A stretch of 64,000 nt of DNA from an uncultured Anaerolineaceae bacterium (GTDB lineage Bacteria; Chloroflexota; Anaerolineae; Anaerolineales; E44-bin32): positions 3,150 through 67,149 of the forward strand of contig CAZQDE010000004.1 in NCBI GenBank assembly GCA_964591485.1, in the 5' to 3' direction. Under the pieces are notes generated by a model. It was not told the origin of the DNA and did not search any database. It was given only the letters and a program-made list of their open reading frames with translations. The stretch's first letter is position 1. Each line of letters opens with the position of its first letter. Both the position numbers and the translations under genes were made by a program. Of this stretch, positions 23,980 to 62,682 are shown one piece after another.

Positions 23980-23997
23980 GCAAGGTGGAGGTCAACC

Positions 23998-25344: not shown

Positions 25345-25356
25345 CATCCAGGCTTG

Positions 25357-25388: not shown

Positions 25389-25479
25389 TCACGGGCTGCC
25401 CGGGGGGCACCTTCGGGCTCTCGCCCCAAAGCCTGCGATGCTCCGAGGCGGTCTTCTAGATCCCAGAGACGGTTAGGCA

Positions 25480-27435: not shown

Positions 27436-27477
27436 GTGCCTTGATGAGGTAGCTTTCGAGATAGGAGCTAGTTCGAG

Positions 27478-28245: not shown

Positions 28246-28285
28246 CCTTGCCTCCCGCCCGTGGGGGCCGACGAGGAGTTGATCC

Positions 28286-31000: not shown

Positions 31001-31033
31001 ACGCCGATAGGTTCGACCGGGCGAAGTTCATCC

Positions 31034-34361: not shown

Positions 34362-34584
34362 AACGGCTCACGCAGACAGCAACGGTCGCTTCCATGCCTC
34401 CTTAGAGGAGACCCTTTGCGATGGCCGCGGGCTTTGCTTCCCGGTCTGCAAACATGGTGCCTTGCTCACCGTGCCGGGTGAACGCATGCCCTTGGTGGAC
34501 GCATATGACTGCACGGGTTGCGGCGACTGCGTGACTACTTGTCCCACCGGGGCACTGCAAATCCAATCCAGGATCCGGGTATGA
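34354..34584 (+). CDS. small 4Fe-4S ferredoxin-like protein
   Basis: 76 codons containing CTGCGDCVTTCP plus CDGRGLCFPVC. Its ATG overlaps the hdrA stop (ATGGCTGA) and its stop overlaps the mvhD start (ATGA). Confidence 0.55.
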   Translation: MAETAHADSNGRFHASLEETLCDGRGLCFPVCKHGALLTVPGERMPLVDAYDCTGCGDCVTTCPTGALQIQSRIRV

Positions 34585-35015
34585 CCGACCCATCCAAGTT
34601 TTCCCCCGAAATCACCCTCTTCACATGTATCTATTGTGGCTACATGGCCGCCGATACGGCTGGCGCGCTGCGCCAGAGCTACCCCGCAAACGTGAAGATC
34701 GTCCGTCTCCCTTGCACCGGCAAGGCCGATGTTCAATACTTGCTGGACGCCTTCGAAGAGGGCGCCGATGGCGTCATGATCGTTGCCTGCAGCTTGGGCA
34801 ATTGCCATCATGAGCATGGCAACGAACGCGCCACCGCCCGTGTCGAACGCACCAAGGCGCTGCTCGCCTCCATCGGCCTTGAGCCGGAGCGTCTTGCCAT
34901 ATACTATGTATCGGGCGGGATGGGCGCGACCTTCGCCGAGAACATCCGGGCGATGACCGCGCAACTGCAGGAACTCGGGCCCAGCCCGCTGAAAGTTCCC
35001 GCCCAAAAGGCCTAG
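34581..35015 (+). CDS. mvhD: MvhD (methyl-viologen-reducing hydrogenase delta subunit)-like protein, Cys form
   Basis: FTCIYCGY...LPCTGK...GADGVMIVACSLGNCHH aligns with the other two MvhD copies in the window. Confidence 0.85.
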   Translation: MTDPSKFSPEITLFTCIYCGYMAADTAGALRQSYPANVKIVRLPCTGKADVQYLLDAFEEGADGVMIVACSLGNCHHEHGNERATARVERTKALLASIGLEPERLAIYYVSGGMGATFAENIRAMTAQLQELGPSPLKVPAQKA

Positions 35016-38000: not shown

Positions 38001-38835
38001 CAAGGATTTCTGCGAAGCAGACATTCGCAACGCGAGCAATCTGTGCCAGCGGACGCGCTGCCAATACCAGTATGGGGAGCACTAGATGGGCATCCCACCC
38101 CATTCCGCCTACAGGAAGGACCGTTCGCCCTGTGGCTTGGGTCAGTCGGATGACCAGCATCTGCAACAGCAGCGCTACGAAAAAACTGGGAAGCGACATT
38201 CCTATCGAGGAGAGCAAAACGATGGGAAGAGACCAGAGAGCCCTCCTCCCTCGCGCGCTCCATAACCCCAGAGGCAGACCCAAAAGCGCAGCCAGCGCCA
38301 GGGCGCCAAATAGCAGCGCAAAGCTGCGCCCCACAATCTCAGGAAGAATCTCCAGAACAGGCCTGGGCAGACGTGAGAAGCCATATTCGCCCGTCTCACC
38401 CAGATCGCCATGGGAGAGACGCAGCACATACGCCCCTGTGCGCTCTATGGCGGAAGCTGCGGCCGCATCGAAGGGCTGTCCACTTGCCATCCCCAACCCA
38501 AAGAAGGTCAGCCAGAGGACCGCCAGGCAGGTCAGGATGACCATGCTCGCCCGGCCCGTGAGCAGACCGAGCCATCTCCGGATGGCCGCCGCCTTTACTA
38601 GCGTTCTTGTCTGTGGCGGCCGGGGGGCCTGCCCTGGAATCGCAGGGATGATCGCCTCGGTGGGCTGAATACCTGGGGATGTGTGTCCGCGGGGTTCCAC
38701 TCGGATGAGCCGACGGAATCGCGCTACCGGGTCTTCTTCTGTGGTTTCGGGATGGCTTGGCATGACGGCGCTCGATTCACGTTTGACTCCTATGCATGCG
38801 CAACTCCAGTCTCGAGAATGCGACTTCCGAGGCAC
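35074..38835 (-). CDS. fusion protein: DppB/OppB-like permease + DppC/OppC-like permease + C-terminal M28-peptidase-like domain
   Basis: Permease 1 has EYIRTAHSKGLTPAWILGKHVMRNAAVP. Permease 2 has FVESAAAVGTSSIGIITRHIWPNLLP. The C-terminal part contains ASDNASGVAVMLEAIRAL (M28-like). The true start may be the second ATG at 38763. Confidence 0.75.
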   Translation of the reverse strand: MPRKSHSRDWSCACIGVKRESSAVMPSHPETTEEDPVARFRRLIRVEPRGHTSPGIQPTEAIIPAIPGQAPRPPQTRTLVKAAAIRRWLGLLTGRASMVILTCLAVLWLTFFGLGMASGQPFDAAAASAIERTGAYVLRLSHGDLGETGEYGFSRLPRPVLEILPEIVGRSFALLFGALALAALLGLPLGLWSARGRRALWSLPIVLLSSIGMSLPSFFVALLLQMLVIRLTQATGRTVLPVGGMGWDAHLVLPILVLAARPLAQIARVANVCFAEILDQEYIRTAHSKGLTPAWILGKHVMRNAAVPVLTTIGVALRYSLISLPVVEYFFGWQGLGFYLLKAIATNEADFAAGMLLCLVAAFLLVNLLLEASYGLCDPRLRGQGSADVRRARGRIGDALREIPEAIWGIVRRSRLGHLIARGRDEDGLPPLAELAKGMRLEELDETRRMPRRLWARATLGNPGLMLGGLLVLGLIFLVLFGASLTPHSPYTTRGLVLGNGEFSVPPFPPSETYPLGTDLLGRDLMSLIMAGARQTMLLAALSVLGRLVLGTALGALAGWWSGSWIDRLALALVEVLAAFPALLLAMVLILAFNIRNGMPPFILALSLVGWGEIIQFVRAEVMRLRPAEFVESAAAVGTSSIGIITRHIWPNLLPSLVSITTIEMGAALMLLGELGFVGIFIGGGIFAELEWMAPLFHYSDVPEWGSLLSNVRTYARGYPWMGLYPGLAFFGAILAFNLFGEGIRKLIDQVGVHVMRILNRYTLALAAGLVAAIFWIQGSTGSIVAYQQNARTFEGKAAKVDIEALTAPAAEGRNLGTLGLQVAAEWIAESFERLGLQPAGETFTYFQPRRRDFQVLAAQPVLQLNDGGEPLRFQEDFNVYPSRNTIAGHAAAPFRFLGLGRVRSYTQLGYRYYDLEDLDFRDQILLVFEEDMFYLDQIPHGGALVIAASPEVLQQHYALSPFPAGGREAPALWVSEVVANRLLEPAGKTVRELRQAFLELGEEERLEIDLGVEAVIDIQGVNHENVPTMNVIGHLQGVVSNEYEGMDQELFVVLAKYDCPPAPLGQQSLPCASDNASGVAVMLEAIRALQETGYQPYRTFLFVAYSGEGWEGGGQVSAEDVGQFLVSKHGFDRFYDLKGVIEVRAVGSGGSDLEVKSFGSLRLAQLFERAAARQGVSVSLVRESMDVGRLFRDGSGLESGEQVPRIIISRAGWETISATREDTPDRIDEKQLEEAGRVFALSLMILGRELDY

Positions 38836-48130: not shown

Positions 48131-48661
48131 ATGGGAGCGAGAGAGACGATGAATCTGCTGCGGGTATTGGTGGGGGCATTCCTGCTGGGCTTTGGCCGTA
48201 GTCTATACTGGCTGTTCGTCGGCGGAGTTGGCTTCCTGGCCGCGAACACGCTCGCAAGCCGCCTGCTGGAGGGATCGCCGCGCATGCTGGTATTGGCGAT
48301 CGCTGTGGCCGCAGGGCTTCTGGGCGCTCTGCTCGCCATCCTCCTGCAGAAATTCGCCGTAGGCCTGGCGGGCTTCCTGGCTGGCGGCTACTTTTTCGTC
48401 ATCCTGCTCGATCTCCTGAGACTGGATTACGGCCCGGCGGCATGGATCCTGTTCGTCGTTGGCGGCTTCCTGGGCACGATCCTGGTTGCTGCTCTTTTCG
48501 AAGTCTCGCTGATCTTTCTATCCTCGCTCAGCGGCGCGCTGCTGATCGCGCAGTCCTTTCAGTCGACGCCCGTCCAGAACGCTTTGCTCATCTCCGGCTG
48601 CCTATTGGCAGGGGTCATCATTCAATCGGTTCTGCTGGTCGGGGAAAAACGCGAGGCCTGA
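48131..48661 (+). CDS. small polytopic membrane protein (DUF4203-like?)
   Basis: About five hydrophobic helices. An alternative ATG lies at 48149. The family assignment is weak. Confidence 0.45.
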   Translation: MGARETMNLLRVLVGAFLLGFGRSLYWLFVGGVGFLAANTLASRLLEGSPRMLVLAIAVAAGLLGALLAILLQKFAVGLAGFLAGGYFFVILLDLLRLDYGPAAWILFVVGGFLGTILVAALFEVSLIFLSSLSGALLIAQSFQSTPVQNALLISGCLLAGVIIQSVLLVGEKREA

Positions 48662-48831: not shown

Positions 48832-51800
48832 GTGACGGACGGTGCGCAGGCAGACGCCCTCGGATTGGCGAATCCGACCGGCGACCACGCGCCCGTGGGC
48901 GCAGTCATGGTCGTCGGTGGTGGCATTGCCGGCATGCAGGCCAGCCTCGATCTGGCCGACCAGGGCTTTCGCGTCTTCCTGGTTGAGAACAAGTCCGCCA
49001 TCGGCGGCCATATGGCGCAGCTCGATAAGACCTTCCCCACCAACGACTGCGCCATGTGCACCATCAGCCCCAAACTGGTTGAAACCGGGCGGCACCTCAA
49101 CATCGACGTACTGGTGGATCGTGAAGTGCTGCGTGTCGATGGGCAGGCCGGCGATTTCACCGTCACTCTGAGGCGCAAACCGCGCTATATCGACCTGGAG
49201 AAATGCGTCGGCTGCGGGGATTGCGCCGACGTCTGTCCGATCGTCATCCCAGACCCCTTCAACGAGGGGCTATCTCAGCGGCATGCGGCCTTTAAGCTCT
49301 ACCCGCAGGCCGTCCCCAATGCCTACGCCATCGAGAAGCTCGGCATTTCCCCCTGCCGAGACGCCTGCCCTGCCGGCCAGCGCGCCCAGGGTTACATCGC
49401 CCTCATTCGCGAGGGACGATATGAGGACGCGCTGCGTGTTATCAAGGAAGACAATCCCTTCCCCGGCATCTGTGGCCGTATCTGCAACCACCGCTGTGAG
49501 GATGCCTGCAACCGTGGCTTGCTGGATGAGCCCATCAACATCCGCGCCCTCAAGCGATTCGTGACCGACAAAGTCTACGCCAAGCCGCGCGAGCCGCGCC
49601 CGCCGGCAGAGATCACGCAGGAGAAGCGCGTGGCGATCATCGGCGCCGGTCCGTGCGGCCTCACCGCCGCCCAGGACCTGGCCAAGCTGGGCTACCCGGT
49701 GGCCATCTTCGAGGCCCTGCCAGTGGCTGGCGGCATGCTGCGGGTGGGCGTTCCCGAATATCGCCTGCCCGCTGAGATCATCGATCGGGAAGTGGCCGAT
49801 ATCCTCGACCTGGGGATCGAACTCCGTCTGAACACCATGGTCGAGGATTTGGACGAAGTCTTCGATGAAGGCTTCGACGCCGTCTTGATCGCGGTCGGCG
49901 CCCATGAGGGGATTCGTCTGCCAATCCCGGGCGCCGACCTCGACGGCGTGTTGATCAACACCCGCTTCCTGCGCGATGTGCGCCTGGGCAACCCTCCACC
50001 GCTGGGGGAGAAGGTCTTGGTCCTTGGCGGCGGAAACGTGGCTATCGACTGCGCCCGCACCGCAGTCAGGCTGGGTGCGGAGGTCCATCTGGCCTGTCTG
50101 GAATCACGCCAGGGGATGCCCTGCCATCCCTGGGAGGCCGATGCGGCCGAGGAGGAGGGCGTCACCATCCATCCCGACCGCAGCTTCTTGCGCATCGTCG
50201 CCGACGAAAATGGGCGCGCCGCCGGCGTGGAGTGTGCCAAGGTTACCCACTTTGAATTCGACCACGAGGGCCGCCTCTCGGTCGAAACGGAACCCGACTC
50301 CGAGCACATCCTCGAGGCCGACACGGTGATCTTCTCCGTGGGCCAGCGCGCCGGCTTGGCGTTCATCCCGGACGACGCTGGCGTGGGTATCACCCGCCAG
50401 CGAACCATCGCCATCAACCCCAACACCATGGCCGCCACCCGGCCAGGCGTCTTCGCCGCCGGCGATAGCGTTTCGGGGACGGCCTTCGTGATCGAGGCGG
50501 TGGCCTCCGGCCACAAGGCGTCTGAAGCAATCCACCGCTACCTCCAAGGCGAGGATCTCGAATTGCCTCCCAAGCCGGAGTTGCCGGTGGTCAAGTTCAC
50601 CCGCGCCGAACTTCAGCAGCGGGTGCTCGAGGGCGAGCTTAGACCCAAGCCCCGCGTTCCCATGCCAGAGCTTCCGCCGGAGCAACGCCGGGCGAACTTC
50701 GCGGAAGTCGAGCGCGGCTATACCGATGAATTGGCCCAGGAGGAGGCCGCCCGCTGCCTGGCCTGCGCCGTATGCTCTGAGTGCCTCTCCTGCGTGTATG
50801 CCTGCGGCCGGGAGGCCATCGATCACGATATGGTGGCCGTGGAGGAGCAGATCCAGGTGGGAGCCATCGTGCTCGCACCGGGGTATCAGGTCTACCATGC
50901 CGAACTCTCCCAGGAATATGGGCTCGGCCGTTACCCGAATGTGATCACGGCGCTGCAACTGGAGCGCCTGCTTTCGGCCTCCGGGCCCACCGGCGGCCAC
51001 GTCACCCGCCCCTCCGATGGGGAGCCCGCCCGCAAGATTGCCTTCCTGCAATGCGTAGGCTCACGCGACCAGAGCCATGACTACTGCTCGGCTGTCTGCT
51101 GCATGTACGCCGCCAAAGAGGCGGTGATGATCAAGGAGCACGATTCGCAGGCCCAGGTGCATGTCTTCATGATGGACATGCGGGCCTTCAGCAAGGGCTA
51201 TGAAGGTTATTACCGCCGTGCGCGCGAGCAGTACGGCATCGAGTACACTCGCTGCCGCATCTCCTCCCTGCGCGAGGATCCCGAGACTGGGGACCTGGTC
51301 GTCCGCTACCGGCGCGAATCGTCCTCCGGCATCGAGATGTTGGAGGAAACCTTCGACCTGGTGGTTCTTTCGGTGGGTATGGAGATCTCCGACTCGGTCA
51401 AGCAACTCGGCCGCGACCTGGGAATCGAGCTGGACGAATATGGCTTCTGCCATACCGCCTTCTTTGACCCGCTGCAGACCACTCGGCCGGGCATCTACGC
51501 AGCCGGGCCCTTCCGGGAGCCAAAGGACATCCCCGAGACCGTGATCGATGCCAGCGGCGCGGCGGCGCAGGCGGCCGAGTTGCTGGCGGCCTCGCGGTTC
51601 ACGCTCACCCGCAAAGCCGAATTCCCGCCTGAGCGCGACATTCGCGGCGAGCCGCCACGCATCGGCGTCTTCGTCTGCCATTGCGGCTCGAATATCGGTG
51701 GCTATCTGGACGTGCCTGAGGTGGCCGAATACGCCCTCAGCCTGCCGGGTGTGGTCCATGCGGAGGACAATCTCTACACCTGCTCCCAAGACAGCATCGC

Positions 51801-53397
51801 CCATATTACCGAGCAGGTAAAAGAGCTGGGGCTCAACCGGGTCGTCGTGGCCTCTTGCACGCCCATCACGCACGCCCCGCTCTTCCAGGACTCGATTCGC
51901 GCTGCAGGGTTGAATCCGGCCATGTTCGAGATGGCCAACATCCGCAATCAGTGTTCATGGGTGCACTCCAACGACTGGGAGGCCGCCACCCGCAAAGCCA
52001 AGGACCTGGTGCGTATGGCCGTCGCCCGGGCCAGCACGCTGGAGCCGATCCACACAACCTCTGTGCCCGTCGAGGCCCAGGCGCTGGTGGTGGGCGGGGG
52101 CGCAGCTGGAATGACGGCGGCCCTATCCCTGGCACAGAGCGGCTTCGAAGTTCACCTAGTCGAGAAAGAAGCCGAGCTCGGCGGCAACTTGCGCAGGGTC
52201 CGCTACCTTCTTGATGGACAGGATCCCCGCGCTTTTCTGGACGAGACGATTGAACGTGTGCAGGCCGAGTCACGCATTCACCTGCACTTGGGCAGCGAGG
52301 TGCAACAGACCAGCGGCTTCATGGGCCGTTTCACCTCGATCCTGAGGACTCCCCAGGGCGAGGAGCCGATCCGCCACGGTGTGACGATCCTGGCCACCGG
52401 CGCCCAAGAATATCGCGGCGGCGAGTATGGCTATGGGACACACCCGCGAGTGCTCACCGGCCTGGAGTTCGAGAGCATGCTGGCGCATGCTGAGCAGCCG
52501 GATGTGCCGCTGGAGGACCAGGCCAGGGCCGCCTGGGAGGCGATCGGCGGACAATTGCCATCTGAAGTGGCCATGATCCTTTGCGTAGGCCCAGCGGACA
52601 GGTTCTGCAGCCGGATATGCTGCACAACCGCTCTGAAGAACGCCCTCGAACTCAAGCGCCAGCGCCCCGATGCCCGGGTCTTTGTGCTCTTCAAGGATAT
52701 CCGCACCTATGGCTTCAAAGAGCGCCTCTACACCGAGGCCCGCCGGCAGGGTGTCGTCTTCCTGCGCTACGATGACGAAACTCAGCCGGTGGCAGAGTTC
52801 CTGAACGGCCGGCTCAAGCTGGTGGCGCACGACCCGCAACTCGGCCAGGACATCACAATTTCGCCCGACCTACTGGTGCTCAGCAACCCGATCGTGCCCT
52901 CGCCAGATAGCCGGGACCTCGCCAGCACGTTCAAGGTTCCGGTGGACGCCGATGGCTTCTTCCTCGAAGCCCATGTGAAGCTGCGGCCGGTCGACTTCGC
53001 CTCCGACGGCCTCTTCATGGCCGGGATGGCCCACTACCCTAAGATGCTGGATGAGACCCTGGTCCAGGCTCGCGCCGCCGCCGCCCGCGCCGCACGGGTC
53101 CTCTCCCAGCGGGCCCTCACCGCGGGAGGCATCGTCGCCCGGGTGATCGCGGAGAAATGCGTCGGCTGCCTGACCTGCGTACGCGTATGCCCCTTCGATG
53201 TGCCCCAGGTCCAGCCCGATTTTGCTGGTGTGGGCGGGATTCAAGGTGCGGCCTTTATCGAGCCCACGATCTGCCAGGGCTGCGGAAGCTGCGCCGCAGA
53301 ATGTCCAGCCAAGGCCATCGAATTGATTCACTACCGCGACGACCAGATCATGATCAAGCTGGATGCCCTACTCCTAGGAGCGAAGAGTCCGTTATGA
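48832..53397 (+). CDS. hdrA: HdrL-like giant flavo-FeS protein: HdrA-like module with inserted GltD/NfnB-like NAD(P)H oxidoreductase + second full HdrA module
   Basis: 1521 aa. N-terminal FAD motif VMVVGGGIAGMQAS. GltD-like insert at ~49345-50600 (CRDACPAGQRAQGYIALI...NPFPGICGRICNHRCEDAC...IIGAGPCGLTAA...VFAAGD). HdrA signatures LQCVGSRD/CSAVCC, then a second FAD motif LVVGGGAAGMTAA and a C-terminal dicluster ferredoxin. GTG start with GGGAGGGG upstream. Confidence 0.85.
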   Translation: MTDGAQADALGLANPTGDHAPVGAVMVVGGGIAGMQASLDLADQGFRVFLVENKSAIGGHMAQLDKTFPTNDCAMCTISPKLVETGRHLNIDVLVDREVLRVDGQAGDFTVTLRRKPRYIDLEKCVGCGDCADVCPIVIPDPFNEGLSQRHAAFKLYPQAVPNAYAIEKLGISPCRDACPAGQRAQGYIALIREGRYEDALRVIKEDNPFPGICGRICNHRCEDACNRGLLDEPINIRALKRFVTDKVYAKPREPRPPAEITQEKRVAIIGAGPCGLTAAQDLAKLGYPVAIFEALPVAGGMLRVGVPEYRLPAEIIDREVADILDLGIELRLNTMVEDLDEVFDEGFDAVLIAVGAHEGIRLPIPGADLDGVLINTRFLRDVRLGNPPPLGEKVLVLGGGNVAIDCARTAVRLGAEVHLACLESRQGMPCHPWEADAAEEEGVTIHPDRSFLRIVADENGRAAGVECAKVTHFEFDHEGRLSVETEPDSEHILEADTVIFSVGQRAGLAFIPDDAGVGITRQRTIAINPNTMAATRPGVFAAGDSVSGTAFVIEAVASGHKASEAIHRYLQGEDLELPPKPELPVVKFTRAELQQRVLEGELRPKPRVPMPELPPEQRRANFAEVERGYTDELAQEEAARCLACAVCSECLSCVYACGREAIDHDMVAVEEQIQVGAIVLAPGYQVYHAELSQEYGLGRYPNVITALQLERLLSASGPTGGHVTRPSDGEPARKIAFLQCVGSRDQSHDYCSAVCCMYAAKEAVMIKEHDSQAQVHVFMMDMRAFSKGYEGYYRRAREQYGIEYTRCRISSLREDPETGDLVVRYRRESSSGIEMLEETFDLVVLSVGMEISDSVKQLGRDLGIELDEYGFCHTAFFDPLQTTRPGIYAAGPFREPKDIPETVIDASGAAAQAAELLAASRFTLTRKAEFPPERDIRGEPPRIGVFVCHCGSNIGGYLDVPEVAEYALSLPGVVHAEDNLYTCSQDSIAHITEQVKELGLNRVVVASCTPITHAPLFQDSIRAAGLNPAMFEMANIRNQCSWVHSNDWEAATRKAKDLVRMAVARASTLEPIHTTSVPVEAQALVVGGGAAGMTAALSLAQSGFEVHLVEKEAELGGNLRRVRYLLDGQDPRAFLDETIERVQAESRIHLHLGSEVQQTSGFMGRFTSILRTPQGEEPIRHGVTILATGAQEYRGGEYGYGTHPRVLTGLEFESMLAHAEQPDVPLEDQARAAWEAIGGQLPSEVAMILCVGPADRFCSRICCTTALKNALELKRQRPDARVFVLFKDIRTYGFKERLYTEARRQGVVFLRYDDETQPVAEFLNGRLKLVAHDPQLGQDITISPDLLVLSNPIVPSPDSRDLASTFKVPVDADGFFLEAHVKLRPVDFASDGLFMAGMAHYPKMLDETLVQARAAAARAARVLSQRALTAGGIVARVIAEKCVGCLTCVRVCPFDVPQVQPDFAGVGGIQGAAFIEPTICQGCGSCAAECPAKAIELIHYRDDQIMIKLDALLLGAKSPL

Positions 53398-53873
53398 TTG
53401 ATTTCGAGCCCCAAATCGTCGCCTTCTGCTGCACGCATTGCGCCTACAACGCGGCCGATCTCGCCGGGAGCCTGCGCTTTCAGTATCCCCCGGCGATCAA
53501 GATCATCCAGGTGCTTTGCAGCGGCCGGGTGGATGTGATCCACCTGCTGCGGGCCTTCGAAGACGGTGCCGACGGCGTGCTCGTCGCCGGTTGACTGCCC
53601 GGCGACTGTCATTACCTGGAAGGTAATGTCAACGCCAGACGCAGGGTAGACTACACGCGGCAATTGCTTGAGGAAATCGGGCTCGAAGGGCAGCGCTTGC
53701 AGATGATCAACGTGTCGTCCGCCATGGCCGGAGAGTTCGCATTCGCCGCGGCTGAATTAACGGCCGCGATCCAGCAATTGGGGCCCAGCCCGCTGCGGGA
53801 AAATGGGCCGGCGCCGCAACCCGCTGGGGACCGGGAACCGTCCCCGCATGTGGAGCATGATGGCACAGATTGA
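53394..53873 (+). CDS. mvhD: MvhD-like protein with in-frame TGA (putative selenocysteine, codon 67)
   Basis: ORFs 53157-53594 and 53664-53873 share one frame, and the reading frame stays open after the TGA at 53592-53594. GADGVLVAG-TGA-LPGDCHY aligns with GADGVMVAGCLEGDCHF and GADGVMIVACSLGNCHH in the two paralogues. The ATG overlaps the stop of the upstream gene (ATGA). Confidence 0.7.
53601..53636 (+). promoter_or_regulatory. candidate bacterial SECIS hairpin
   Basis: Begins 7 nt after the TGA. Lower stem GGCG/CGCC, upper perfect 7-bp stem CATTACC/GGTAATG, apical loop UGGAA. The first loop G lies 24 nt after the TGA. Confidence 0.5.
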
Positions 53874-55089
53874 GGATCTTACCCGCTTTGATCTATTCAC
53901 CGATCTCCCCGAATCGGCCGTGGAGCGTATTGCGGCGTTGGCCCATCCCGAGGAGTATCCACGCGACGCGTGGATCTTCAACGAGGGGGAAGCCGCCGAG
54001 AAGCTTTACCTGATCTTGCGGGGCAAAGTCTCGCTCGAGAAACGCGTCCAATTAGGCAGGACCGGCACACCTCGCCAGGCCGTTATCAGCATCGTTGGGC
54101 CCTGGCACGCCATTGGCTGGTCAAGCCTAGTGCCCCCGTACGCGTACACCTCATCCGGTCTCTGTCTCGAAGACACGGCTGTCCTTGCCATACAGGGCGA
54201 GGAGCTGCGGGCCTTGATGAGCGCCGAGCCTGAGATCGGCTTCAAGATCTTCCACCGGGTGGCTTCGATCGTACGCGCCCGCATGGTGAGCGCCACCTCC
54301 ACGCTGACCTACTTCCTCTCGATCGTCTCGCACGAACTCAAGCGGCCGCTTGCCGCTGTCGAAAATTATCTGCAAGTCCTGCTGGGAGGCTACGCCGGAA
54401 ATCTGACCCCCAAGCAGCAGCGGCTGCTCGAACGCAGCGTGCTCCGCCTCACTGACTTGCGCCATCTAATCAGCGATCTGCTCGATTTCGCTCGCATCCA
54501 GCCGGATCAGATCCGCGCCGATTTCGAGTGGGTGAACCCGGCGGAGGTGGGCGCCGAGGCGCTTGAAGAGGTGCGGCTGGCGGCCAGCCAGAAGAACATG
54601 CGCCTGAAGGCTATCGGCGCCACAGAATTCCAGCCCCTCGTCGCCGCCCGCCGGCGCCTTCGCCAAGTGATCTCCAACTTGCTGGCCAATGCCATCAAGT
54701 TCTCACCGGAGGGGAGCACGGTCACGCTTGCCGCACACGAGAGGCCGGATTCACTCGTGATCGAGGTGATGGACGAGGGAATTGGGATCCCAGCCGAGGA
54801 TCAACCTCATATCTTCGAAGATTTTTTCCGCGCCAGCAACGCGGCCGAATTCGGGGGGGCCGGACTGGGACTTTCGATCGCCAAGAAGATCATCGATGCC
54901 CATGAAGGACGCATCGAGGTCGAAAGCCCGTACCTGCCGGATAAGAGCGGCACCAAGTTCACCGTCATCATCCCCCGCACGCTCAGTCTGCCCCGCGATC
55001 GCGCCAATCAAGGGTCCGATCTAGAAGCGGCGGCGCCCATCCGCCAGCAGGGGGAGGCTGGCGCTCAGGGCGCACCAGGGGATGCATGA
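53860..55089 (+). CDS. cyclic-nucleotide-binding-domain sensor histidine kinase
   Basis: CAP_ED-like N-terminus (FDLFTDLPESAV...IFNEGEAAEKLYLILRGKV), H-box SIVSHELKRPL, and HATPase_c (NLLANAIKF...DEGIGIP...GGAGLGLSIAKKI). The start is ambiguous (53848, 53857 or 53860) and overlaps the mvhD end. Confidence 0.8.
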   Translation: MAQIEDLTRFDLFTDLPESAVERIAALAHPEEYPRDAWIFNEGEAAEKLYLILRGKVSLEKRVQLGRTGTPRQAVISIVGPWHAIGWSSLVPPYAYTSSGLCLEDTAVLAIQGEELRALMSAEPEIGFKIFHRVASIVRARMVSATSTLTYFLSIVSHELKRPLAAVENYLQVLLGGYAGNLTPKQQRLLERSVLRLTDLRHLISDLLDFARIQPDQIRADFEWVNPAEVGAEALEEVRLAASQKNMRLKAIGATEFQPLVAARRRLRQVISNLLANAIKFSPEGSTVTLAAHERPDSLVIEVMDEGIGIPAEDQPHIFEDFFRASNAAEFGGAGLGLSIAKKIIDAHEGRIEVESPYLPDKSGTKFTVIIPRTLSLPRDRANQGSDLEAAAPIRQQGEAGAQGAPGDA

Positions 55090-55090
55090 G

Positions 55091-55864
55091 ATGAGCGAGA
55101 AGCCTTATATCCTGATCGCCGACGACGATCCCGATATCCTGGAAGGGATCACTGCGGTTCTCGAAAGCAAGCCCTACCGGCTGGCCACGGCCAAGGATGG
55201 ACTGGAATGCATGCAGCGCATCCGCGAGGAAACGCCGGACCTGCTGATCCTGGACATGATGATGCCACGCATGGATGGCTTCGCCGTAATCCTGGAACTG
55301 CGTTCTGACCCGCAGTACGCCGGACTGCCGGTCATCATCCTTACCACCGTCGTGGAGGATGCCGCCTACCGCCGTTACGAACTTGAGACCGGCGCCGCCA
55401 TGGAGGCACAGGCCTACATCGAGAAGCCGGCCTCTCCAGAAGAGCTGCTCCGCCATGTGAGCGCCATCGTCGAACAGCCTTATATCATTGTGGCGGATGA
55501 TGATCCGGACGTTCTCGAGGCTGTGCGCACCATCCTCGAGAGCCAGCCGTACCAGGTGGCAACCGCCAGGGATGGCGAGAAATGCCTCGAGATGGTCCGC
55601 AAGCGCAAGCCCGATCTGCTGCTGCTCGACCTGCTCATGCCACGCATGGATGGCTTCGCCGTCATCCGGGAGCTGCGCAGCGAACCAGCCTACGCCGACC
55701 TTCCCATCCTGGTGCTCACCACAGTGGTCGAGGATGCCAGCCGGCGACGCTACGAACTCGAGACGGGGCGGGATATGGCCGTCCACGCCTATTTACAGAA
55801 ACCGGTCGCGCCCGATCAGTTGCTCACCCGCGTGGCCGAGGCGCTCAAGAAGGTGACGGCATGA
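55091..55864 (+). CDS. stand-alone tandem receiver (REC-REC) response regulator
   Basis: Two clearly paralogous REC domains (ILIADDDPD...DLLILDMMMPRMDGFAV and IIVADDDPD...DLLLLDLLMPRMDGFAV). There is no output domain, and the stop overlaps the next ATG (ATGA). Confidence 0.85.
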   Translation: MSEKPYILIADDDPDILEGITAVLESKPYRLATAKDGLECMQRIREETPDLLILDMMMPRMDGFAVILELRSDPQYAGLPVIILTTVVEDAAYRRYELETGAAMEAQAYIEKPASPEELLRHVSAIVEQPYIIVADDDPDVLEAVRTILESQPYQVATARDGEKCLEMVRKRKPDLLLLDLLMPRMDGFAVIRELRSEPAYADLPILVLTTVVEDASRRRYELETGRDMAVHAYLQKPVAPDQLLTRVAEALKKVTA

Positions 55865-58800
55865 GCGAGTCCCGGAATCCCCGCCAGCCGACCGGAGCCG
55901 TGCTGGTGGTTGGCGGCGGCATCGCCGGCATGCAGGCCAGCCTTGATCTGGCCGAGCAGGGATTCCGCGTCCACCTTGTCGAGAGCAAATCTGCCATTGG
56001 CGGACACATGGCCCAGCTCGATAAGACCTTCCCGACCAACGATTGTGCCATGTGCATCATGAGCCCCAAGTTGGTCGAGACCGGCCGGCACTTGAATATC
56101 GACCTTTATGTCGACAGCGAAGTGGTCAGCCTCGAGGGCGAGGTCGGCCGGTTCGTGGCCAAGCTGCACCGCAAGCCCCGCTATGTGGATCTCGAGCGCT
56201 GTGTGGGTTGCGGCGATTGTGAGGCGGTTTGCCCGGTCAGCCTGCCTGACATCTACAACGAGCAACTCACCGCCCGCAAGGCAATCTACAAGCTCTACCC
56301 CCAGGCCGTTCCCAACGCCTACGCCATCGAAAAGCTCGGTGTTGCCCCTTGCCGTCACGCATGCCCGGCCGATCAGCGCGCCCAAGGGTACATCGCCCTG
56401 ATCGCGCAGGGGCGCTACCGGGAGGCTTTCCGCGTCATCAAGGAAGACAACCCCTTCCCGAGCGTCTGCGGCCGCACGTGCCACCACCCCTGCGAGGGGC
56501 ACTGCACCCGGGCGCTCATCGATGAAGCGGTGAGCATCATGGCCCTAAAGCGCTTCGTGGTCGACTATGCACTGGCCTATGGTCGCGAGCGGGTCGAGCC
56601 CGCGGCGCGCACCCGCCCCGAGTGGGTAGCCGTTGTCGGCGCCGGCCCGGCCGGCCTCACTGCCGCGCACGACCTCGCCAAACTGGGTTATGGCGTCACC
56701 GTCTATGAAGCCCTGCCCGTCGCCGGCGGGATGATGCGGGTGGGCATCCCCGCCCACCGGCTGCCCAAGGGCGTTCTCCAGCAAGACATCGATGACATCC
56801 TGGCTTTGGGCATCAACCTGAAGACCAACTCGCCGGTCGACGACCCCGCCGCCCTGCTCAAGGAGGGATATGATGCCGTCTGCCTGGCGACGGGAATCTC
56901 GACCCGCGACCGCTCGCTGGGCGTGGATGGCGAGCAAGCGGAGGGGGTGATGTCGGCGGCCACCTTCCTGCGCAAGGTCAATCTTGGCGAGCCTGTGACC
57001 GTGGGGGAGCGCGTGGCGGTCGTGGGTGGTGGGATTACCGCGCTGGACGCCGCCGCCGTGGCCCGCCGTCTCGGCGCCCGCGAAGTCCATCTGGCGCTCG
57101 ACCGCCCGCGCGGCGAGTTGCCCGCCTACCACTGGGAGATGGCCGCCGTCGAAGCCGAGGGCATCCACCTGTTCGAGCACACCACTCTCACCCGCATCCT
57201 CACCCAGGAGGGCCGTGTGGCCGGTGTGGAATTGGCCAGGACCGGCAAGGGCATGACCGTAGATGAAAAGGGGCGCCGCAGGCCCCGCGTGCTTCCAGAG
57301 ACGATCTTCACCCTGGCGGTCGACACGGTCATCGGCACCATCGGCCAGCAATCGGATCTGAGCTTCCTCGATCCCCGCTTCGATGAACTCGAGGCCGATC
57401 AAGACACCCTGGCGAGCGAGATTCCGGGCCTATTTGTCGTGGGCGGACGAAAGACCGGCGCCAGCTATATCGTGGAGGCCATCGCCCTAGGACACCGTGT
57501 GGCGCGCTCGATCCACGCTTACCTGCAAGGTGAAAGCCCCGGCGCAATCGAAGAGCCTCGGCCGAGCCCGGTGAAGCTGGACCGTGAGCAGGCGACGCGC
57601 CTGTACGCGCTCGATCCAGCCAGGGCCTTGCCGCGGCAGGAACCCGCTCTGCTGCCCATTGAGGAGCGAGTGACCAGTTTCCGCGAAGTGGTTCTCGGCC
57701 TGACCGAGCGGCAGGCCCGCGCCGAAGCCCAGCGTTGCCTCCAATGTGGCCTTTGCGCGGAATGTCTGGAGTGTGTGTATGCCTGCGGCACCGATGCCAT
57801 CGATCACAACATGCAGCCGCAGGAAATCGAGCTCGAAGTCGGCGCGGTCATCCTCGCCCCGGGGTATGAGGCCTACCGGGCAGAGCTCTCGCAGGAGTAC
57901 GGCTTTGGCCGCTACCCCAACGTCATCACCTCGCTGCAACTGGAGCGGCTGCTCTCGGCCTCCGGCCCCACCGAAGGCCACGTCCTGCGGCCCTCGGATG
58001 GACGCCCCGCCCGCAAGGTGGCATTCCTGCAGTGCGTGGGCTCGCGCGACCAGGAGCATGACTACTGCTCCGCTGTCTGCTGCATGTACGCCGCCAAAGA
58101 GGCCATCCTCATCCGTGAACATGACCCTCAAGCAGAGGTGCGCATCTTTATGATGGACGTGCGCGCCTTCAGCAAGGGCTACGAAGAGTATTACCGGCGA
58201 GCCCAAGAGCAATACGGCATCCAGTTCACCCGCTGCCGCGTCTCCGAGATCAAAGAAGATCCGCAGACCCACGAGCTCATCCTGCGCCATGCCGGGCCGG
58301 CCCTTGAGGGTCCCGGTGCCCGTTCCGCCGCAGAGCGCATGTCCGAAGAACGCTTCGACCTCGTGGTGCTGGCCGTGGGCATGGAGATCTCCCCGAAAGT
58401 CCAGGAGCTCGGCCGGCGGCTCGGCGTGGAACTCGACCGCTATGGCTTCTGCGCCACCACCACCTTCCAGCCGATCGAGACTTCCCGCCCAGGCATCTAC
58501 GCCGTGGGACCCTTCCGCGAGCCCAAGGACATCCCCGAGTCCGTGATCGACGCCTCCGCCGCCGCGGCGATGGCCGGGGGCCACCTGGCGGCCGCACGGG
58601 GACTGCTGACCCGGGAACCGAGTTACCCGCCAGAAAAGGATGTTACCGGTGAATCCCCCCGGGCGGGCATCTTCGTCTGCCACTGCGGATCGAACATCGC
58701 CGGCTACCTGGACGTGCAGGCGCTTACCGCCTACGCCGCCAGCTTACCGAACGTGGTTCACGCCGAGGACTTGCTATACGCATGTTCTCAGGATAGCACC

Positions 58801-60426
58801 GCCAAGATCCGCGAGCGCATCCGCGAGCACAACCTGAACCGGGTGATCGTGGCCTCCTGCACCCCTCTCACGCACGGCCCTCTTTTCCAGGATGTTATTC
58901 GGGCCGAGGGCCTGAACGAGCACCTCTTCGCCATGGCCAACATCCGCAATCATTGCTCTTGGGTCCATTCAAGCGATCGGGCGATGGCCACCGAGAAGGC
59001 CAAGGACCTGATCCGCATGGCGCTGGGGCGGGCCTTGGCCCTCGAACCGTTGCACCGCCAACCAACCCCTATCCGGCAATCGGCGCTTGTTCTTGGCGGA
59101 GGCGTGGCAGGTATGAGCGCCGCGCTGGCCATCGCCGAGGGTGGTTTTGAGGTCGATCTTGTTGAGCGGGAAGCCGTTCTGGGCGGCCAGCTTAGGCAAA
59201 TCCACCTCGGACTGCCGGGCGTCTCCGAGGGCGAGAGCGCCGACCCGGCGGACCTTCTGGAGGACATGATCTCCCGGGTTGAGAAGCATGCAAGCATCCA
59301 GGTTCACCTCGAGAGCGAATTGGTTGAATCGCGCGGCTTCGCCGGCAATTTCACCTCCCTAATCGAGCATAGGAATGGGGAGCGGCGGGAGATCGATCAT
59401 GGTGCCACAATCGTGGCTATCGGCGGCGCAGAATTCCGCGGCGACACCTATGGATATGGAACTCACGATCGCATCCTGACTCAACGGGACTTCGAGGCCC
59501 TTCTCGCCGCCGAGATGAACCCCATCCCCCGAGATCAGGGCCCCTCTCTAGAATTGAAGGATGTGCGTCAGGTTGTGATGATCCAATGTGTGGGGCCGGC
59601 GGAGACGGTATGCGCCCGAACCTGCTGCACGGTGACGCTGAAGAACGCCTTGCACTTCAAGCGCCGTCACCCCCAGGCGCAGGTGGCCATCATTCACAAG
59701 GACCTGCGTGTCTATGGGTTCAAGGAACGCCTCTACCGCCAGGCGCTCGATGCGGGCATTCTCTTCATCCGCCGCTCCAATGGCGAGCGACCCATGGTGG
59801 CGTTCGACCATCCCGAGGGCATCCTCAGCGTTCAGATCCTGGATGCTATCCTCCGAGAGACCATCACACTCCAGCCGGACTTGGTAGTGCTCTCCATGCC
59901 TATGGTGCCCGCCAAGGGAAGCCGGGAGCTGGCAAGCCGCTTGAAGGTTCCCGTCGATATGGAGGGCTGGTTCCTGGAGGCACATGTCAAACTGCGGCCG
60001 GTGGACTTCGCCAGCGAGGGCATCTTCCTCGCCGGCGCAGCCCATTATCCCAAGCTACTTGATGAATCCATCGTCCAGGCGCAGGCTGCCGCCTCACGGG
60101 CCATGCGGTTGCTGGCCAGAGAGAGCGTCCCAACGGGAGGCGCCATCGCCCGCGTTGACCCCTCTGCTTGTGTGGCCTGCCTGACCTGCGTGCGCATCTG
60201 TCCCTATGGTGTCCCGCGCATCGATGAGAGTGCAGTGGGGGCCGGCGGCATCCAGGGAGCTGCCTACATCGAACCAAGCGTATGCCAGGGTTGTGGAACG
60301 TGCGTGGGGGAATGCCCGGCGTATGCGATTGAACTGCTCCACTACCGCCATAGCCAGGTGGAGAAGGAGGTCATCGCCCTGCTCCGTCCCGAGGAGATCT
60401 GGACAAGCAGCGAGGTGGGATCATGA
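55861..60426 (+). CDS. hdrA: HdrL-like giant flavo-FeS protein, paralogue of 48832-53397 (same architecture, same length)
   Basis: 1521 aa from the ATG at 55861 (MSESRNPRQPTGAVLVVGGGIAGMQAS). Collinear with the paralogue, including the GltD-like insert. The 93 extra N-terminal codons in the track ORF lie over the REC gene in another frame. Confidence 0.85.
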   Translation: MSESRNPRQPTGAVLVVGGGIAGMQASLDLAEQGFRVHLVESKSAIGGHMAQLDKTFPTNDCAMCIMSPKLVETGRHLNIDLYVDSEVVSLEGEVGRFVAKLHRKPRYVDLERCVGCGDCEAVCPVSLPDIYNEQLTARKAIYKLYPQAVPNAYAIEKLGVAPCRHACPADQRAQGYIALIAQGRYREAFRVIKEDNPFPSVCGRTCHHPCEGHCTRALIDEAVSIMALKRFVVDYALAYGRERVEPAARTRPEWVAVVGAGPAGLTAAHDLAKLGYGVTVYEALPVAGGMMRVGIPAHRLPKGVLQQDIDDILALGINLKTNSPVDDPAALLKEGYDAVCLATGISTRDRSLGVDGEQAEGVMSAATFLRKVNLGEPVTVGERVAVVGGGITALDAAAVARRLGAREVHLALDRPRGELPAYHWEMAAVEAEGIHLFEHTTLTRILTQEGRVAGVELARTGKGMTVDEKGRRRPRVLPETIFTLAVDTVIGTIGQQSDLSFLDPRFDELEADQDTLASEIPGLFVVGGRKTGASYIVEAIALGHRVARSIHAYLQGESPGAIEEPRPSPVKLDREQATRLYALDPARALPRQEPALLPIEERVTSFREVVLGLTERQARAEAQRCLQCGLCAECLECVYACGTDAIDHNMQPQEIELEVGAVILAPGYEAYRAELSQEYGFGRYPNVITSLQLERLLSASGPTEGHVLRPSDGRPARKVAFLQCVGSRDQEHDYCSAVCCMYAAKEAILIREHDPQAEVRIFMMDVRAFSKGYEEYYRRAQEQYGIQFTRCRVSEIKEDPQTHELILRHAGPALEGPGARSAAERMSEERFDLVVLAVGMEISPKVQELGRRLGVELDRYGFCATTTFQPIETSRPGIYAVGPFREPKDIPESVIDASAAAAMAGGHLAAARGLLTREPSYPPEKDVTGESPRAGIFVCHCGSNIAGYLDVQALTAYAASLPNVVHAEDLLYACSQDSTAKIRERIREHNLNRVIVASCTPLTHGPLFQDVIRAEGLNEHLFAMANIRNHCSWVHSSDRAMATEKAKDLIRMALGRALALEPLHRQPTPIRQSALVLGGGVAGMSAALAIAEGGFEVDLVEREAVLGGQLRQIHLGLPGVSEGESADPADLLEDMISRVEKHASIQVHLESELVESRGFAGNFTSLIEHRNGERREIDHGATIVAIGGAEFRGDTYGYGTHDRILTQRDFEALLAAEMNPIPRDQGPSLELKDVRQVVMIQCVGPAETVCARTCCTVTLKNALHFKRRHPQAQVAIIHKDLRVYGFKERLYRQALDAGILFIRRSNGERPMVAFDHPEGILSVQILDAILRETITLQPDLVVLSMPMVPAKGSRELASRLKVPVDMEGWFLEAHVKLRPVDFASEGIFLAGAAHYPKLLDESIVQAQAAASRAMRLLARESVPTGGAIARVDPSACVACLTCVRICPYGVPRIDESAVGAGGIQGAAYIEPSVCQGCGTCVGECPAYAIELLHYRHSQVEKEVIALLRPEEIWTSSEVGS

Positions 60427-60887
60427 GCGTGCAAGCCAGTCCACCGCTGCATATTGTTGCCTTCTGTTGCCATTATTGCGCCTATGCCGCTGCGGATCTG
60501 GCGGGCGTGCTGCGGCTCCAGTATCCAGCCACGGCGCGCATCGTGGAGATTCCATGTGCCGGAAGGTTGGATGCGCTGGAAGTGCTGCACACCTTCGAGC
60601 ACGGAGCGGATGGCGTGATGGTCGCGGGTTGCCTGGAGGGGGACTGCCACTTCCAATCCGGCAACCTGAATGCCAAACGACGGGTGGATTTCATTCGCGG
60701 GCTGCTGGAGCAGATTGGACTCGAGCCCGAGCGGCTGGAGATGTTCAACCTCTCCTCCGCCATGGCAAGGCGATTTGCGGAGATCGTTGAGCAGATGGCC
60801 TCCCAGATTCAAGCGCTGGGCCCAAGCCCGCTCCGCAAACAAGCCCGCTCACAACCTGAAACCATAATGGAGAGTCACACCCCATGA
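60423..60887 (+). CDS. mvhD: MvhD-like protein, Cys form
   Basis: IVAFCCHYCAY...IPCAGR...GADGVMVAGCLEGDCHF. The start overlaps the upstream stop (ATGA). Confidence 0.85.
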   Translation: MSVQASPPLHIVAFCCHYCAYAAADLAGVLRLQYPATARIVEIPCAGRLDALEVLHTFEHGADGVMVAGCLEGDCHFQSGNLNAKRRVDFIRGLLEQIGLEPERLEMFNLSSAMARRFAEIVEQMASQIQALGPSPLRKQARSQPETIMESHTP

Positions 60888-60960: not shown

Positions 60961-61647
60961 ATGATCATCGCCGAGCAGAAGCCCTTGGAAGAAATCCGAG
61001 GACTGATAGGTGAAGCAGAGAAGGTGCTGGTAGTGGGCTGCGGCACCTGTGTCACGGTTTGCTTCGCAGGCGGCGAGAAGGAAGCCGGTATCCTGGCAAC
61101 CAGCCTGCGCATGGCCTCCAAGCTCGAGGGCCAGCCTAAGGAAGTGACCCACACGACCGTTCAGCGCCAATGCGAATGGGAGTACATCGACCCGCTGCGC
61201 GATCAGATTGCGCAAGCGGATGCCGTGCTTTCAATCGGCTGCGGGATCGGGGTCCAGGCCTTGGCCGAGCGTTTCCCGGAGGCTATCGTGCTGCCCGGTT
61301 TGAATACCACCTTCTTGGGCCTGCCGGTCGAGCAAGGGATTTGGGAGGAGCGCTGCGCGGCCTGTGGTTCCTGCATCCTAGGCCTCACAGGCGGGATCTG
61401 CCCCATCGCCCGCTGCGCCAAGCAGCTGCTCAATGGCCCTTGCGGGGGCTCCCAGAACGGAGTCTGCGAGATCAACCCTGATACGCCCTGCGCTTGGCAG
61501 CTTATCTATGACCGGCTGAAAGCCCAGGGCCGCCTGCATCTGCTGATGGAGATCCAACCCGCCAAGGATTGGTCCACCAGCCGGGATGGGGGACCCCGCA
61601 AGATTACACGCGAAGACCTGCGTCTGCAGGCCGAACAATCCGAGTAG
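60961..61647 (+). CDS. metV: MetV (MTHFR-associated Cys-rich / FeS subunit)
   Basis: VVGCGTCVTVCFAGG...SIGCGIGVQ...CAACGSCILGLTGGICPIARCAKQLLNGPCGG is typical of MetV. AAGGAGGG lies upstream. Confidence 0.85.
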   Translation: MIIAEQKPLEEIRGLIGEAEKVLVVGCGTCVTVCFAGGEKEAGILATSLRMASKLEGQPKEVTHTTVQRQCEWEYIDPLRDQIAQADAVLSIGCGIGVQALAERFPEAIVLPGLNTTFLGLPVEQGIWEERCAACGSCILGLTGGICPIARCAKQLLNGPCGGSQNGVCEINPDTPCAWQLIYDRLKAQGRLHLLMEIQPAKDWSTSRDGGPRKITREDLRLQAEQSE

Positions 61648-61665: not shown

Positions 61666-62682
61666 ATGAGCGAAGACCGAACCAATGGATACAAATCCGG
61701 ATCGCGCCTGGAGCGGGTGCTCAAGGCCGGCCACTTCGCCGTAACGGCCGAGTTGGGACCCCCGCAAAGCGCCGACGGCGAGGTCATCCGCAAGAAGGCC
61801 GCCCAGCTCAAGGGCTACTGCGATGCCGTGAACATCACCGACAATCAGACCGCCATCGTGCGCATGTCCAGCATCGGCGCCGGCACGATCGTGGTCCAGG
61901 AAGGCCTGGAGCCCATCATCCAGATGACCTGCCGCGACCGCAACCGGCTGGCGATCCAATCCGACTTGATGGGTGCCTATGCGCTCGGCATGCGCAACGT
62001 GCTTTGCCTGACAGGCGATCACCAATCCTTCGGCAACCACCCCACCGCCAAGAACGTGCACGACCTGGACTCGCTGCAGCTGGTTCAGATGGTGGTCAAG
62101 CTGCGGGATGAGCACCAGTTCCAATGTGGGGATGAGGTGAAGGGCATCGAGCCCAGGTTCTTCGTGGGCGCGGCGGCCAACCCCTTCGGGGACCCCTTCG
62201 AGTGGCGTCCCTACCGTCTGGCGAAGAAGGTTCAGGCCGGCGCCAACTTCATCCAGACCCAGCTGATCTACAATGTGCCTCGCTTCGAGGAGTACATGGC
62301 CAAGGTGCGCGAGCTAGGATTGCATGAGAAGGTGTACATCCTGGCGGGCATCGGTCCCTTGAAATCCCCCGGCATGGCCCGCTACATGCGCGACCAAGTG
62401 CCCGGCCTGGATGTGCCCACCGAATTCGTCGATCGCATGACCGCTGCCGCCGCGGGCATCGACAAGGAAGACAAGAAGGCCCGCTCCCAGGCCTGGCGGC
62501 AGGAGGGCATCCGCGTCGCCATCGAGCTGATAGAGCAGATGAAGCAAATCGAGGGTGTTGCAGGCGTGCACATCATGGCCATCGAGTGGGAGAAGGCAGT
62601 TAAACCCATCGTGGAGGGCGCCGGCCTCTACCCGCGCCCGGAGCCTGAAGCGCTGCCAAGCGCCTCGGCAAGCGAAGAGTGA
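61666..62682 (+). CDS. metF: methylenetetrahydrofolate reductase
   Basis: FAVTAELGPP...AVNITDNQTAIVRMSS...CRDRN match MTHFR TIM-barrel motifs. Confidence 0.9.
   Translation: MSEDRTNGYKSGSRLERVLKAGHFAVTAELGPPQSADGEVIRKKAAQLKGYCDAVNITDNQTAIVRMSSIGAGTIVVQEGLEPIIQMTCRDRNRLAIQSDLMGAYALGMRNVLCLTGDHQSFGNHPTAKNVHDLDSLQLVQMVVKLRDEHQFQCGDEVKGIEPRFFVGAAANPFGDPFEWRPYRLAKKVQAGANFIQTQLIYNVPRFEEYMAKVRELGLHEKVYILAGIGPLKSPGMARYMRDQVPGLDVPTEFVDRMTAAAAGIDKEDKKARSQAWRQEGIRVAIELIEQMKQIEGVAGVHIMAIEWEKAVKPIVEGAGLYPRPEPEALPSASASEE

Follow-up and report, generated by a model that had tools for sequence, protein, structure and literature searches.

Does the in-frame TGA codon that splits an mvhD gene of an uncultured Anaerolineaceae bacterium end the protein there, or is it read as selenocysteine (Sec)? 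The gene, which belongs to the FlpD/MvhD family, lies on the forward strand at 53394-53873 of a 64,000-nucleotide stretch of DNA (GenBank assembly GCA_964591485.1, contig CAZQDE010000004.1, positions 3,150 to 67,149). We call this whole stretch the window, and all coordinates refer to it unless another contig is named. An earlier interpretation of the same DNA, made without database searches and termed here the sequence-only reading, had proposed a selenocysteine-containing MvhD whose UGA is followed by a hairpin resembling a bacterial selenocysteine insertion sequence (SECIS) element. Our comparative analysis supports this proposal, and we put the probability that the gene encodes a selenocysteine-containing MvhD with a bacterial SECIS element inside the gene at about 0.93.

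Read through the UGA, mvhD comprises 159 codons plus a stop. Its start codon (ATG at 53394) and the stop of the HdrL-type gene before it share nucleotides in the sequence ATGA, and between this start and the stop at 53871-53873 the frame is interrupted only once, by the TGA at 53592-53594, which is codon 67. A mechanical list of open reading frames (ORFs) cuts the gene in two at this codon (53157-53594 and 53664-53873). The sequence-only reading had remarked both on this split and on the frame staying open to 53873, and we can confirm the two observations: with Cys placed at the TGA, the family profile PF02662 covers residues 8-130 of the read-through product over its full length (profile positions 1-123 of 123, E 2e-47), and it does so with a score of 160.7 bits against a cutoff of 22.3. 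MvhD/VhuD chains from the PDB align gap-free over residues 3-136 (E 4e-42 to 4e-33). The NCBIfam equivalog model for VhuD (NF045873) gives 152.5 bits, below its cutoff of 215 bits. Judged by these scores, the window MvhD is a member of the family and no orthologue of VhuD.

The UGA occupies a position that is otherwise filled by Cys. Five Cys positions, namely 13, 16, 42, 67 and 72, are conserved family-wide, while position 12 is variable. The window protein has C13, C16, C42 and C72, and its position 67 is the UGA, in the context VAG-U-LPGDCHYLEGNVNAR. It had been claimed that the TGA aligns with a Cys in the two other MvhD copies of the window, and our alignment bears this out for both paralogues (34581-35012 and 60423-60884). 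Moreover, the two X residues (Sec) of Methanococcus maripaludis VhuD (9sfi_K) align with window Cys16 and with codon 67; the UGA therefore stands at a position already known for Sec in MvhD/VhuD. Cys16 has been described as an additional, non-ligand Cys that is located between the cluster and FAD (PMC13580544). Since five Cys positions are conserved and Cys16 is a non-ligand, Sec67 would be one of the four [2Fe-2S] ligands. TGA is also the most frequent ordinary stop in the window, where it ends 17 of 34 genes, so that the genetic code is the standard one and the recoding is limited to this site.

The TGA is not confined to a single assembly. The window MetF is encoded on at least 22 contigs of independent metagenome assemblies, and we fetched four of these sister contigs, which match the window over 12.3 kb at 99.8-99.99% identity. 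The TGA and the same hairpin are present on each of them, and each reads TGACTGCCCGGCGACTGTCATTACCTGGAAGGTAATG. For a wider sample we scanned one genome per GTDB species, using back-translated peptides including DCHYLEGN as queries, which enrich for the amino-acid motif and not for particular codons. The scan returned 80 loci, nearly all binned as Chloroflexota and mostly as Anaerolineales or Anaerolineae, that are 54-92% identical to the query at the protein level. Codon 67 is TGA in 77 of these loci and TGT in the other three. In the 77 TGA relatives the downstream frame is open and conserved, with none of the decay that the sequence-only reading had taken into account. The downstream residues A+14, R+17, G+29, R+34, S+41, A+43, F+48 and G+63 are invariant at a synonymous entropy of 1.0-2.3 bits. 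Because the residues are conserved while their codons vary, translation continues beyond the UGA; at the level of codon comparison, the pattern shows that purifying selection acts on the product downstream of it.

What could direct such recoding is an apical SECIS-like hairpin at 53611-53627 on the forward strand (stem AUUACC/GGUAAU, loop UGGAA), which is invariant in 62 of 62 sequences. In the window an extra pair, C53610:G53628, extends it to CATTACC/TGGAA/GGTAATG at 53610-53628; the U and the A of the loop can close, leaving GGA, and the first loop G (53618) lies 24 nucleotides past the A of the TGA. The 7-bp stem, the UGGAA loop and the position of this G had all been described correctly for the window, but only 6 bp of the stem are conserved and the lower stem is not. 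The further claim that the hairpin fits the geometry of bacterial SECIS elements stands when the published rules are applied (PMC13188914). These ask for a loop N1-G-[G/U]-N-N2 in which N1 and N2 can pair, an upper stem of 4-16 bp, a spacing of 16-37 nucleotides and a minimum free energy (MFE) of at most -7.5 kcal/mol. With the loop UGGAA, a stem of 6-7 bp, a spacing of 22 nucleotides from the UGA and an MFE of -17.4 kcal/mol for a 45-nucleotide segment, the window hairpin agrees with the bSECISearch consensus in all constraints, and 60 of the 62 relatives reach -7.5 kcal/mol or lower. A fold of 59 nucleotides reaches an MFE of -24.6 kcal/mol (z = -3.36), and none of 200 shuffled sequences is as stable. 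This extended fold (53595-53649), in which lower stems pair 53595-53604 with 53633-53649, is specific to the window and unconserved. What is kept across the 62 distinct relatives is no more than AUUACC/GGUAAU, the 6-bp stem, with a U-A or U-G closing pair; a seventh pair, C:G, is present in about half, and pairing in the outer helix amounts to 61%. A perfect 8-bp inverted repeat, GTCGCCGG/CCGGCGAC at 53583-53590 and 53599-53606, also surrounds the UGA and places it within an 8-nucleotide loop. This repeat competes with the lower SECIS stem and is impossible in relatives that have Leu-Glu-Gly-Asp, not Leu-Pro-Gly-Asp, after the UGA.

The hairpin is constrained at the level of nucleotides. In none of 62 sequences is there a synonymous change at codons +6 to +8, +10 and +11 (CAT TAC CTG, GGT AAT). 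The codon between CTG and GGT varies between GAA and GAG, so that a single loop base is variable in 17 otherwise identical nucleotides, while the other conserved codons of mvhD have a codon entropy near the maximum. CAT, GGT and AAT end in T although the genes of the window have 64-84% G+C at third positions. The 17-nucleotide element, with the same variable loop base, is identical in the 78 hairpin-bearing genome loci and in the fetched loci of Cys forms. Bacterial SECIS elements of different genes are said to share little sequence, whereas this one is constant over 17 nucleotides among hairpin-bearing relatives. Its 17-mer occurs once in the window, where 0.04 occurrences are expected by chance at up to three mismatches.

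Hairpin and UGA are, moreover, tightly coupled. We searched metagenomes for the hairpin pattern, leaving the third base of codon 67 free, and obtained 123 matches, of which 122 have TGA upstream and one has TGT; TGC and TGG do not occur. Where the contig is long enough to tell, as for 117 of the TGA matches, the frame stays open for 60 codons or more beyond the TGA in every case. Among the hairpin-bearing genome loci the codon is TGA in 77 of 78. Together with the UGA in 77 of the 80 species loci, this coupling upholds the selenocysteine MvhD that had been proposed.

Several results nevertheless weigh against it. Neither selA, selB, selD nor tRNA-Sec was found in the 64-kb window and about 15 kb of flanking sequence on sister contigs; the sel genes were sought in the Pfam/NCBIfam annotations of these flanks and of some 40 genes of the window, and tRNA-Sec by ARAGORN in the window and 60 related loci. 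The hairpin has no Rfam match, either at the gathering threshold in the whole window or at E<=10 within 53400-53900. Among the 62 relatives, the lower stem, in which 53601-53604 pair with 53633-53636 and which extends further, is unconserved and its covariation does not exceed that of controls, and the apical stem shows no compensatory covariation. The assignment of C13, C42, U67 and C72 as probable [2Fe-2S] ligands draws on conservation and on a single remark in PMC13580544 about Cys16. Finally, the exact hairpin codons CAT TAC CTG GAR GGT AAT are kept in 10 of 10 DNA-verified Cys forms with the motif HYLEGN, and the nucleotide constraint may therefore have a cause beyond Sec decoding. As to covariation, it cannot be scored in an apical stem that is invariant, and support comes instead from the suppressed synonymous variation. 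The covarying stem positions that the sequence-only reading had suggested looking for are absent, as the stem is invariant.

With respect to the Sec machinery, there are reports of SelB from single-cell genomes of the Anaerolineales as well as from Anaerolinea thermophila (PMC4959059), and of a Sec-containing FdhA from Anaerolineae (PMC4959059, PMC5736913). An AIRS-family protein encoded beyond the window was considered as SelD and rejected, since it scores 432 bits as HypE and 46 bits as SelD. ARAGORN also called an 86-nucleotide tRNA-Leu(CAA) at 34828-34913 on the reverse strand, opposite the MvhD paralogue at 34581-35015; this call is probably a false positive because Rfam finds no tRNA in the window. 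Further selenoprotein genes were looked for as well. A generic scan for TGA-split ORFs is too noisy at 62% G+C and left 53592 as the one credible case, a motif scan for Sec-FdhA gave noise only, and the homologues of HdrL1, HdrL2, HdrA3, MetV and MetF in about 210 loci, compared by tblastn, showed no stop that recurs at a Cys.

The ten Cys forms (TGC or TGT; loci L028, L085, L087 with two genes, and L211-L216; corresponding window segment 53607-53627) are 55-90% identical pairwise, and their third-position identity is 0.31-0.84, mostly 0.4-0.6. Most of them have Sec forms as their nearest neighbours, with an amino-acid identity of 82-93%. Judged by these distances, Sec seems to have been converted to Cys at least eight times independently, each time with a remnant SECIS left behind; both Sec-to-Cys conversions and remnant SECIS elements are documented (PMC1794560, Fig. 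4). The hairpin is lost in the more distant Cys homologues, that is, in L050, in L073 and in the window paralogues. The Cys forms differ from the UGA forms at residue 71 (53604-53606, GAC in the window), the neighbour of the presumed ligand Cys72: five of the ten Cys forms have Glu there, and none of the 77 UGA forms does (Fisher p = 7e-6). In M. marburgensis, an unidentified ligand contacted by Asp71 lies between the Cys pair of HdrA and the cluster of MvhD (PMC13580544), and the Asp71Glu exchange may be a second-shell compensation for the replacement of selenium by sulfur.

Two of these loci deserve separate mention. L087 (Logan ERR11489086_931), a close relative, has two MvhD genes (10001-10474 and 16655-17113) that are both Cys-coded and both carry the hairpin; its MetV-proximal MvhD copy has the hairpin, while that of the window has none. 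In L085 (1226-1657, on a contig of 3x coverage) codon 67 is TGC and the ligand position Cys72 is TGG (Trp). The W at position 72 of this entry (P0001) was considered as a recoded TGA and rejected, as the codon is TGG; it probably reflects an error or a decaying copy.

The most serious rival explanation concedes that the UGA is Sec and holds that the 17-nucleotide element is kept mainly or additionally for a role other than Sec insertion, which would make it a dual-role hairpin. Such a role might be that of a DNA palindrome bound by a dimeric regulator, for example the response regulator encoded nearby, or that of an RNA pause or stability element that aids Fe-S insertion. The retention of the hairpin codons by all ten diverged Cys forms fits this idea, as do the make-up of the element, a perfect inverted repeat (ATTACC-N5-GGTAAT) whose 6-bp arms stand 5 bp apart, and the histidine kinase/response regulator pair that directly follows the gene, here and in relatives. 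We consider it unlikely all the same. Cys forms that are scattered beside Sec neighbours are what repeated recent conversions leaving remnant SECIS elements would produce (PMC1794560), the hairpin has gone from the distant Cys homologues and the window paralogues, and its position and loop are exactly those that the SECIS rules prescribe. Hairpin-bearing genes have TGA in 122 of 123 metagenomic and 77 of 78 genomic cases. Somewhat more broadly, and still doubtfully, the hairpin could be more than a SECIS in one of two ways: it may have a Sec-independent role (operator palindrome or co-translational pause), or Sec and Cys may be switched frequently and reversibly, which would require the change from Asp71 to Glu. 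The hairpin is unchanged in at least eight scattered Cys lineages, and half of these have Asp71 replaced by Glu. If the switching were real, it would amount to a natural experiment on the role of selenium in the MvhD/VhuD cluster.

That the gene is a pseudogene or truly truncated, with translation stopping at the UGA and yielding a 66-residue fragment only, is highly improbable. It would agree with the 66-residue FlpD fragment called in four assemblies and with the Sec machinery not being found in the window and its flanks of about 15 kb. Such a product, however, would lack half of the fold and also Cys72, one of the presumed ligands, and a UGA that 77 species and 122 metagenome contigs share at this codon, with at least 60 open codons after it, does not look like a truncation; nor would decay preserve invariant downstream residues on saturated synonymous sites. 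A sequencing or assembly error, or a genetic code in which UGA means Trp or Gly (code 4 or 25), can be discounted almost entirely. The database does hold homologues with W at this position (14 of the 120 best), and G, R and V occur once each, but in the W entry whose DNA we checked (L086) the codon is TGA and the W is due to the gene caller. Other homologues carry Cys, not Trp or Gly, at the aligned residue, and TGA is an ordinary stop for half of the window genes, 17 of 34. A base-call error, about which the sequence-only reading had been cautious, is contradicted by the TGA in four independent assemblies.

If the UGA is decoded as Sec, established bacterial Sec insertion suggests how: SelB with GTP and Sec-tRNA(Sec) would bind the apical AUUACC-UGGAA-GGUAAU as the ribosome nears the UGA, and the codon at 53592-53594 would be recoded as selenocysteine instead of acting as a stop, giving a protein of 159 residues. 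This Sec-MvhD would be a small subunit that carries a [2Fe-2S] cluster and transfers electrons in partnership with HdrA-type flavoproteins, with the selenium at residue 67 presumably tuning the [2Fe-2S] relay cluster. Translation of mvhD is probably coupled, through the ATGA overlap, to that of the preceding gene, which encodes a 1521-residue HdrL-type fusion of HdrA and GltD. HdrL and Sec-MvhD may form an NAD(P)H-linked and probably flavin-based electron-bifurcating module, which would be part of the Wood-Ljungdahl/MetVF/HdrCB neighbourhood of this bacterium of the Anaerolineales (Chloroflexota).

The HdrL-type HdrA (48832-53397, forward strand, 1521 amino acids) has an inserted GltD-like NAD(P)H/FAD module and appears to be the upstream partner of Sec-MvhD. 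It scores 936 bits with the NCBIfam model for HdrA2 (cutoff 1100) and 540 bits with PRK12771 (NAD(P)-binding), and it contains the Pfam domains Fer4_20, Pyr_redox_2 and Fer4. The genes described next, up to metF, are on the forward strand too. Downstream of mvhD lie a cyclic-nucleotide-monophosphate (cNMP)-binding histidine kinase (53803-55089; Pfam cNMP_binding, HisKA and HATPase_c) and a response regulator (55082-55864; Response_reg). Then come a second, paralogous module consisting of an HdrL-type gene (55861-60426; 1521 amino acids as called in the sister contig L081) and a Cys-type MvhD (60423-60887) whose corresponding codons, CAC TTC CAA TCC GGC AAC, do not form the hairpin, and finally metV (60961-61647; PF12225) and metF (61666-62682; PF02219). 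The order is HdrL, Sec-MvhD, histidine kinase, response regulator, HdrL, Cys-MvhD, MetV, MetF. The kinase/regulator pair separates the two HdrL-MvhD modules, a layout shared by L081-L084 and L087. On this point the sequence-only reading, which had attached the Sec-MvhD to MetVF, was mistaken: a Cys-type HdrL-MvhD pair, 2 kb downstream of the Sec copy, adjoins metVF with its MvhD at 60423, and the Sec copy, which follows a separate upstream HdrL, is by gene order not the MetVF-adjacent MvhD. Just past the window lie an HdrCB fusion (an HdrC/HdrB-like protein of 463 amino acids in L081), a gene of the aldehyde:ferredoxin oxidoreductase family (AFOR), hypE, hypD, hypC and hypF. The window also holds a complete acs/CODH cluster (18568-29209) and an HdrA-like gene with a Cys-MvhD (31161-35015).

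A close known parallel is Desulfobacterium autotrophicum HRM2, which has four Sec-mvhD genes, each after hdrA or hdrL; its MvhD1, 2, 3 and 5 are Sec-MvhDs directly after HdrA or HdrL, as in the window (PMC2702500). HdrL of this organism is a fusion of HdrA and a glutamate-synthase-like part with an NADH site (PMC2702500). The combination of Sec and Cys paralogues of MvhD in one Wood-Ljungdahl anaerobe is common to D. autotrophicum, Syntrophobacter fumaroxidans and the window (PMC2702500; PMC1794560). These two organisms, compared here by published description, are Deltaproteobacteria, however, and some of their HdrA/HdrL partners are selenoproteins, whereas no in-frame UGA was found in the HdrL of the window or of about 210 related loci. 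M. maripaludis VhuD has the same fold and belongs to the same family as the window MvhD (E 9e-37 over residues 5-135), and both are [2Fe-2S] connector subunits to HdrA (PMC13518236). One of its two Sec residues is at the exact position of the window UGA, in the motif ...AG-U-x-x-x-x-C..., while the other is at the position of Cys16, which is Cys in the window protein. For VhuD, an archaeal protein, the SECIS belongs to the 3' untranslated region, whereas the hairpin of the window gene lies in the coding sequence. Moreover, VhuD connects HdrABC to a [NiFeSe] hydrogenase or to Fdh; the window MvhD, by contrast, follows an HdrL of the NAD(P)H type and has no adjacent hydrogenase.

As in the window, the cluster known from Moorella and Anaerolineae contains an HdrA-type gene, MvhD, MetV, MetF, a fused HdrCB and an inserted two-component system (PMC5736913). 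The Moorella MvhD is a Cys protein, whereas the Sec copy of the window belongs to the duplicated upstream HdrL module. The paper on the Anaerolineae hdr-mvhD-metVF cluster describes FlpD with four conserved Cys and does not mention Sec in MvhD (PMC5736913), and we found no paper naming Sec-MvhD in Chloroflexota. FrhD/MvhD was the third-largest bacterial selenoprotein family in 2006 (PMC1794560), and PF02662 is listed among selenoprotein families in current reviews (PMC13188914). The sequence-only reading was right that MvhD is a Sec family and that the gene would be mis-annotated, but it overstated the novelty, which is small because FrhD/MvhD is a large family, Sec-MvhD after HdrL is known and SelB has been reported in Anaerolineales. 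The finding widens the range of an established selenoprotein family to many lineages within Chloroflexota, with 77 species-level genomes from a single scan, and involves no new mechanism. It also provides a very clean, sequence-defined SECIS that is usable as a search pattern.

In public data the gene is systematically mis-called. The gene callers yield the 66-amino-acid FlpD fragment in all four sister assemblies, and the database homologues with W, or singly G, R or V, at the Sec position include P0003, P0004, P0006, P0007, P0009 and P0012. For L086 (396-854) the deposited W protein is not obtained from the DNA under translation table 11; its Trp stems from a genetic code with UGA as Trp in the gene caller, because the codon is TGA. 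Reconstructions of Wood-Ljungdahl metabolism in Anaerolineales therefore lose or misrepresent one subunit of the HdrL/MvhD electron-transfer modules and overlook a selenium requirement.

A few observations concern the surroundings. The tandem 1521-residue HdrLs, one with a Sec-MvhD and one with a Cys-MvhD, recall the selenium-dependent backup pairs Vhu/Vhc of Methanococcus. In the sister assembly L083 (JGI 3300033148) about 106 bp of the histidine kinase (54561-54666) are missing, and the protein is called at 394 instead of 428 amino acids, with no Pfam hit on record. Neither Pfam nor NCBIfam has a match for two small proteins in or beside the Hdr/MetVF cluster, of 176 amino acids (48131-48661, forward strand) and 117 amino acids (L081, 12424-12777). 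An ORF of 109 amino acids (30681-31010, forward strand) shortly precedes the HdrA-like gene at 31161; it matches only the C-terminal quarter of thioredoxin reductase/AhpF, continues into a Ser-rich tail and looks like a gene remnant. It was considered as the N-terminal part of a UGA-split HdrA in the frame of 31161 and rejected, as two stops lie between the two and the intervening sequence is non-homologous. Finally, an ORF of 1253 amino acids on the reverse strand (35074-38835) is an unusual fusion, in which two ABC-permease stretches (BPD_transp_1) are joined to an M28 peptidase domain at the C-terminus.

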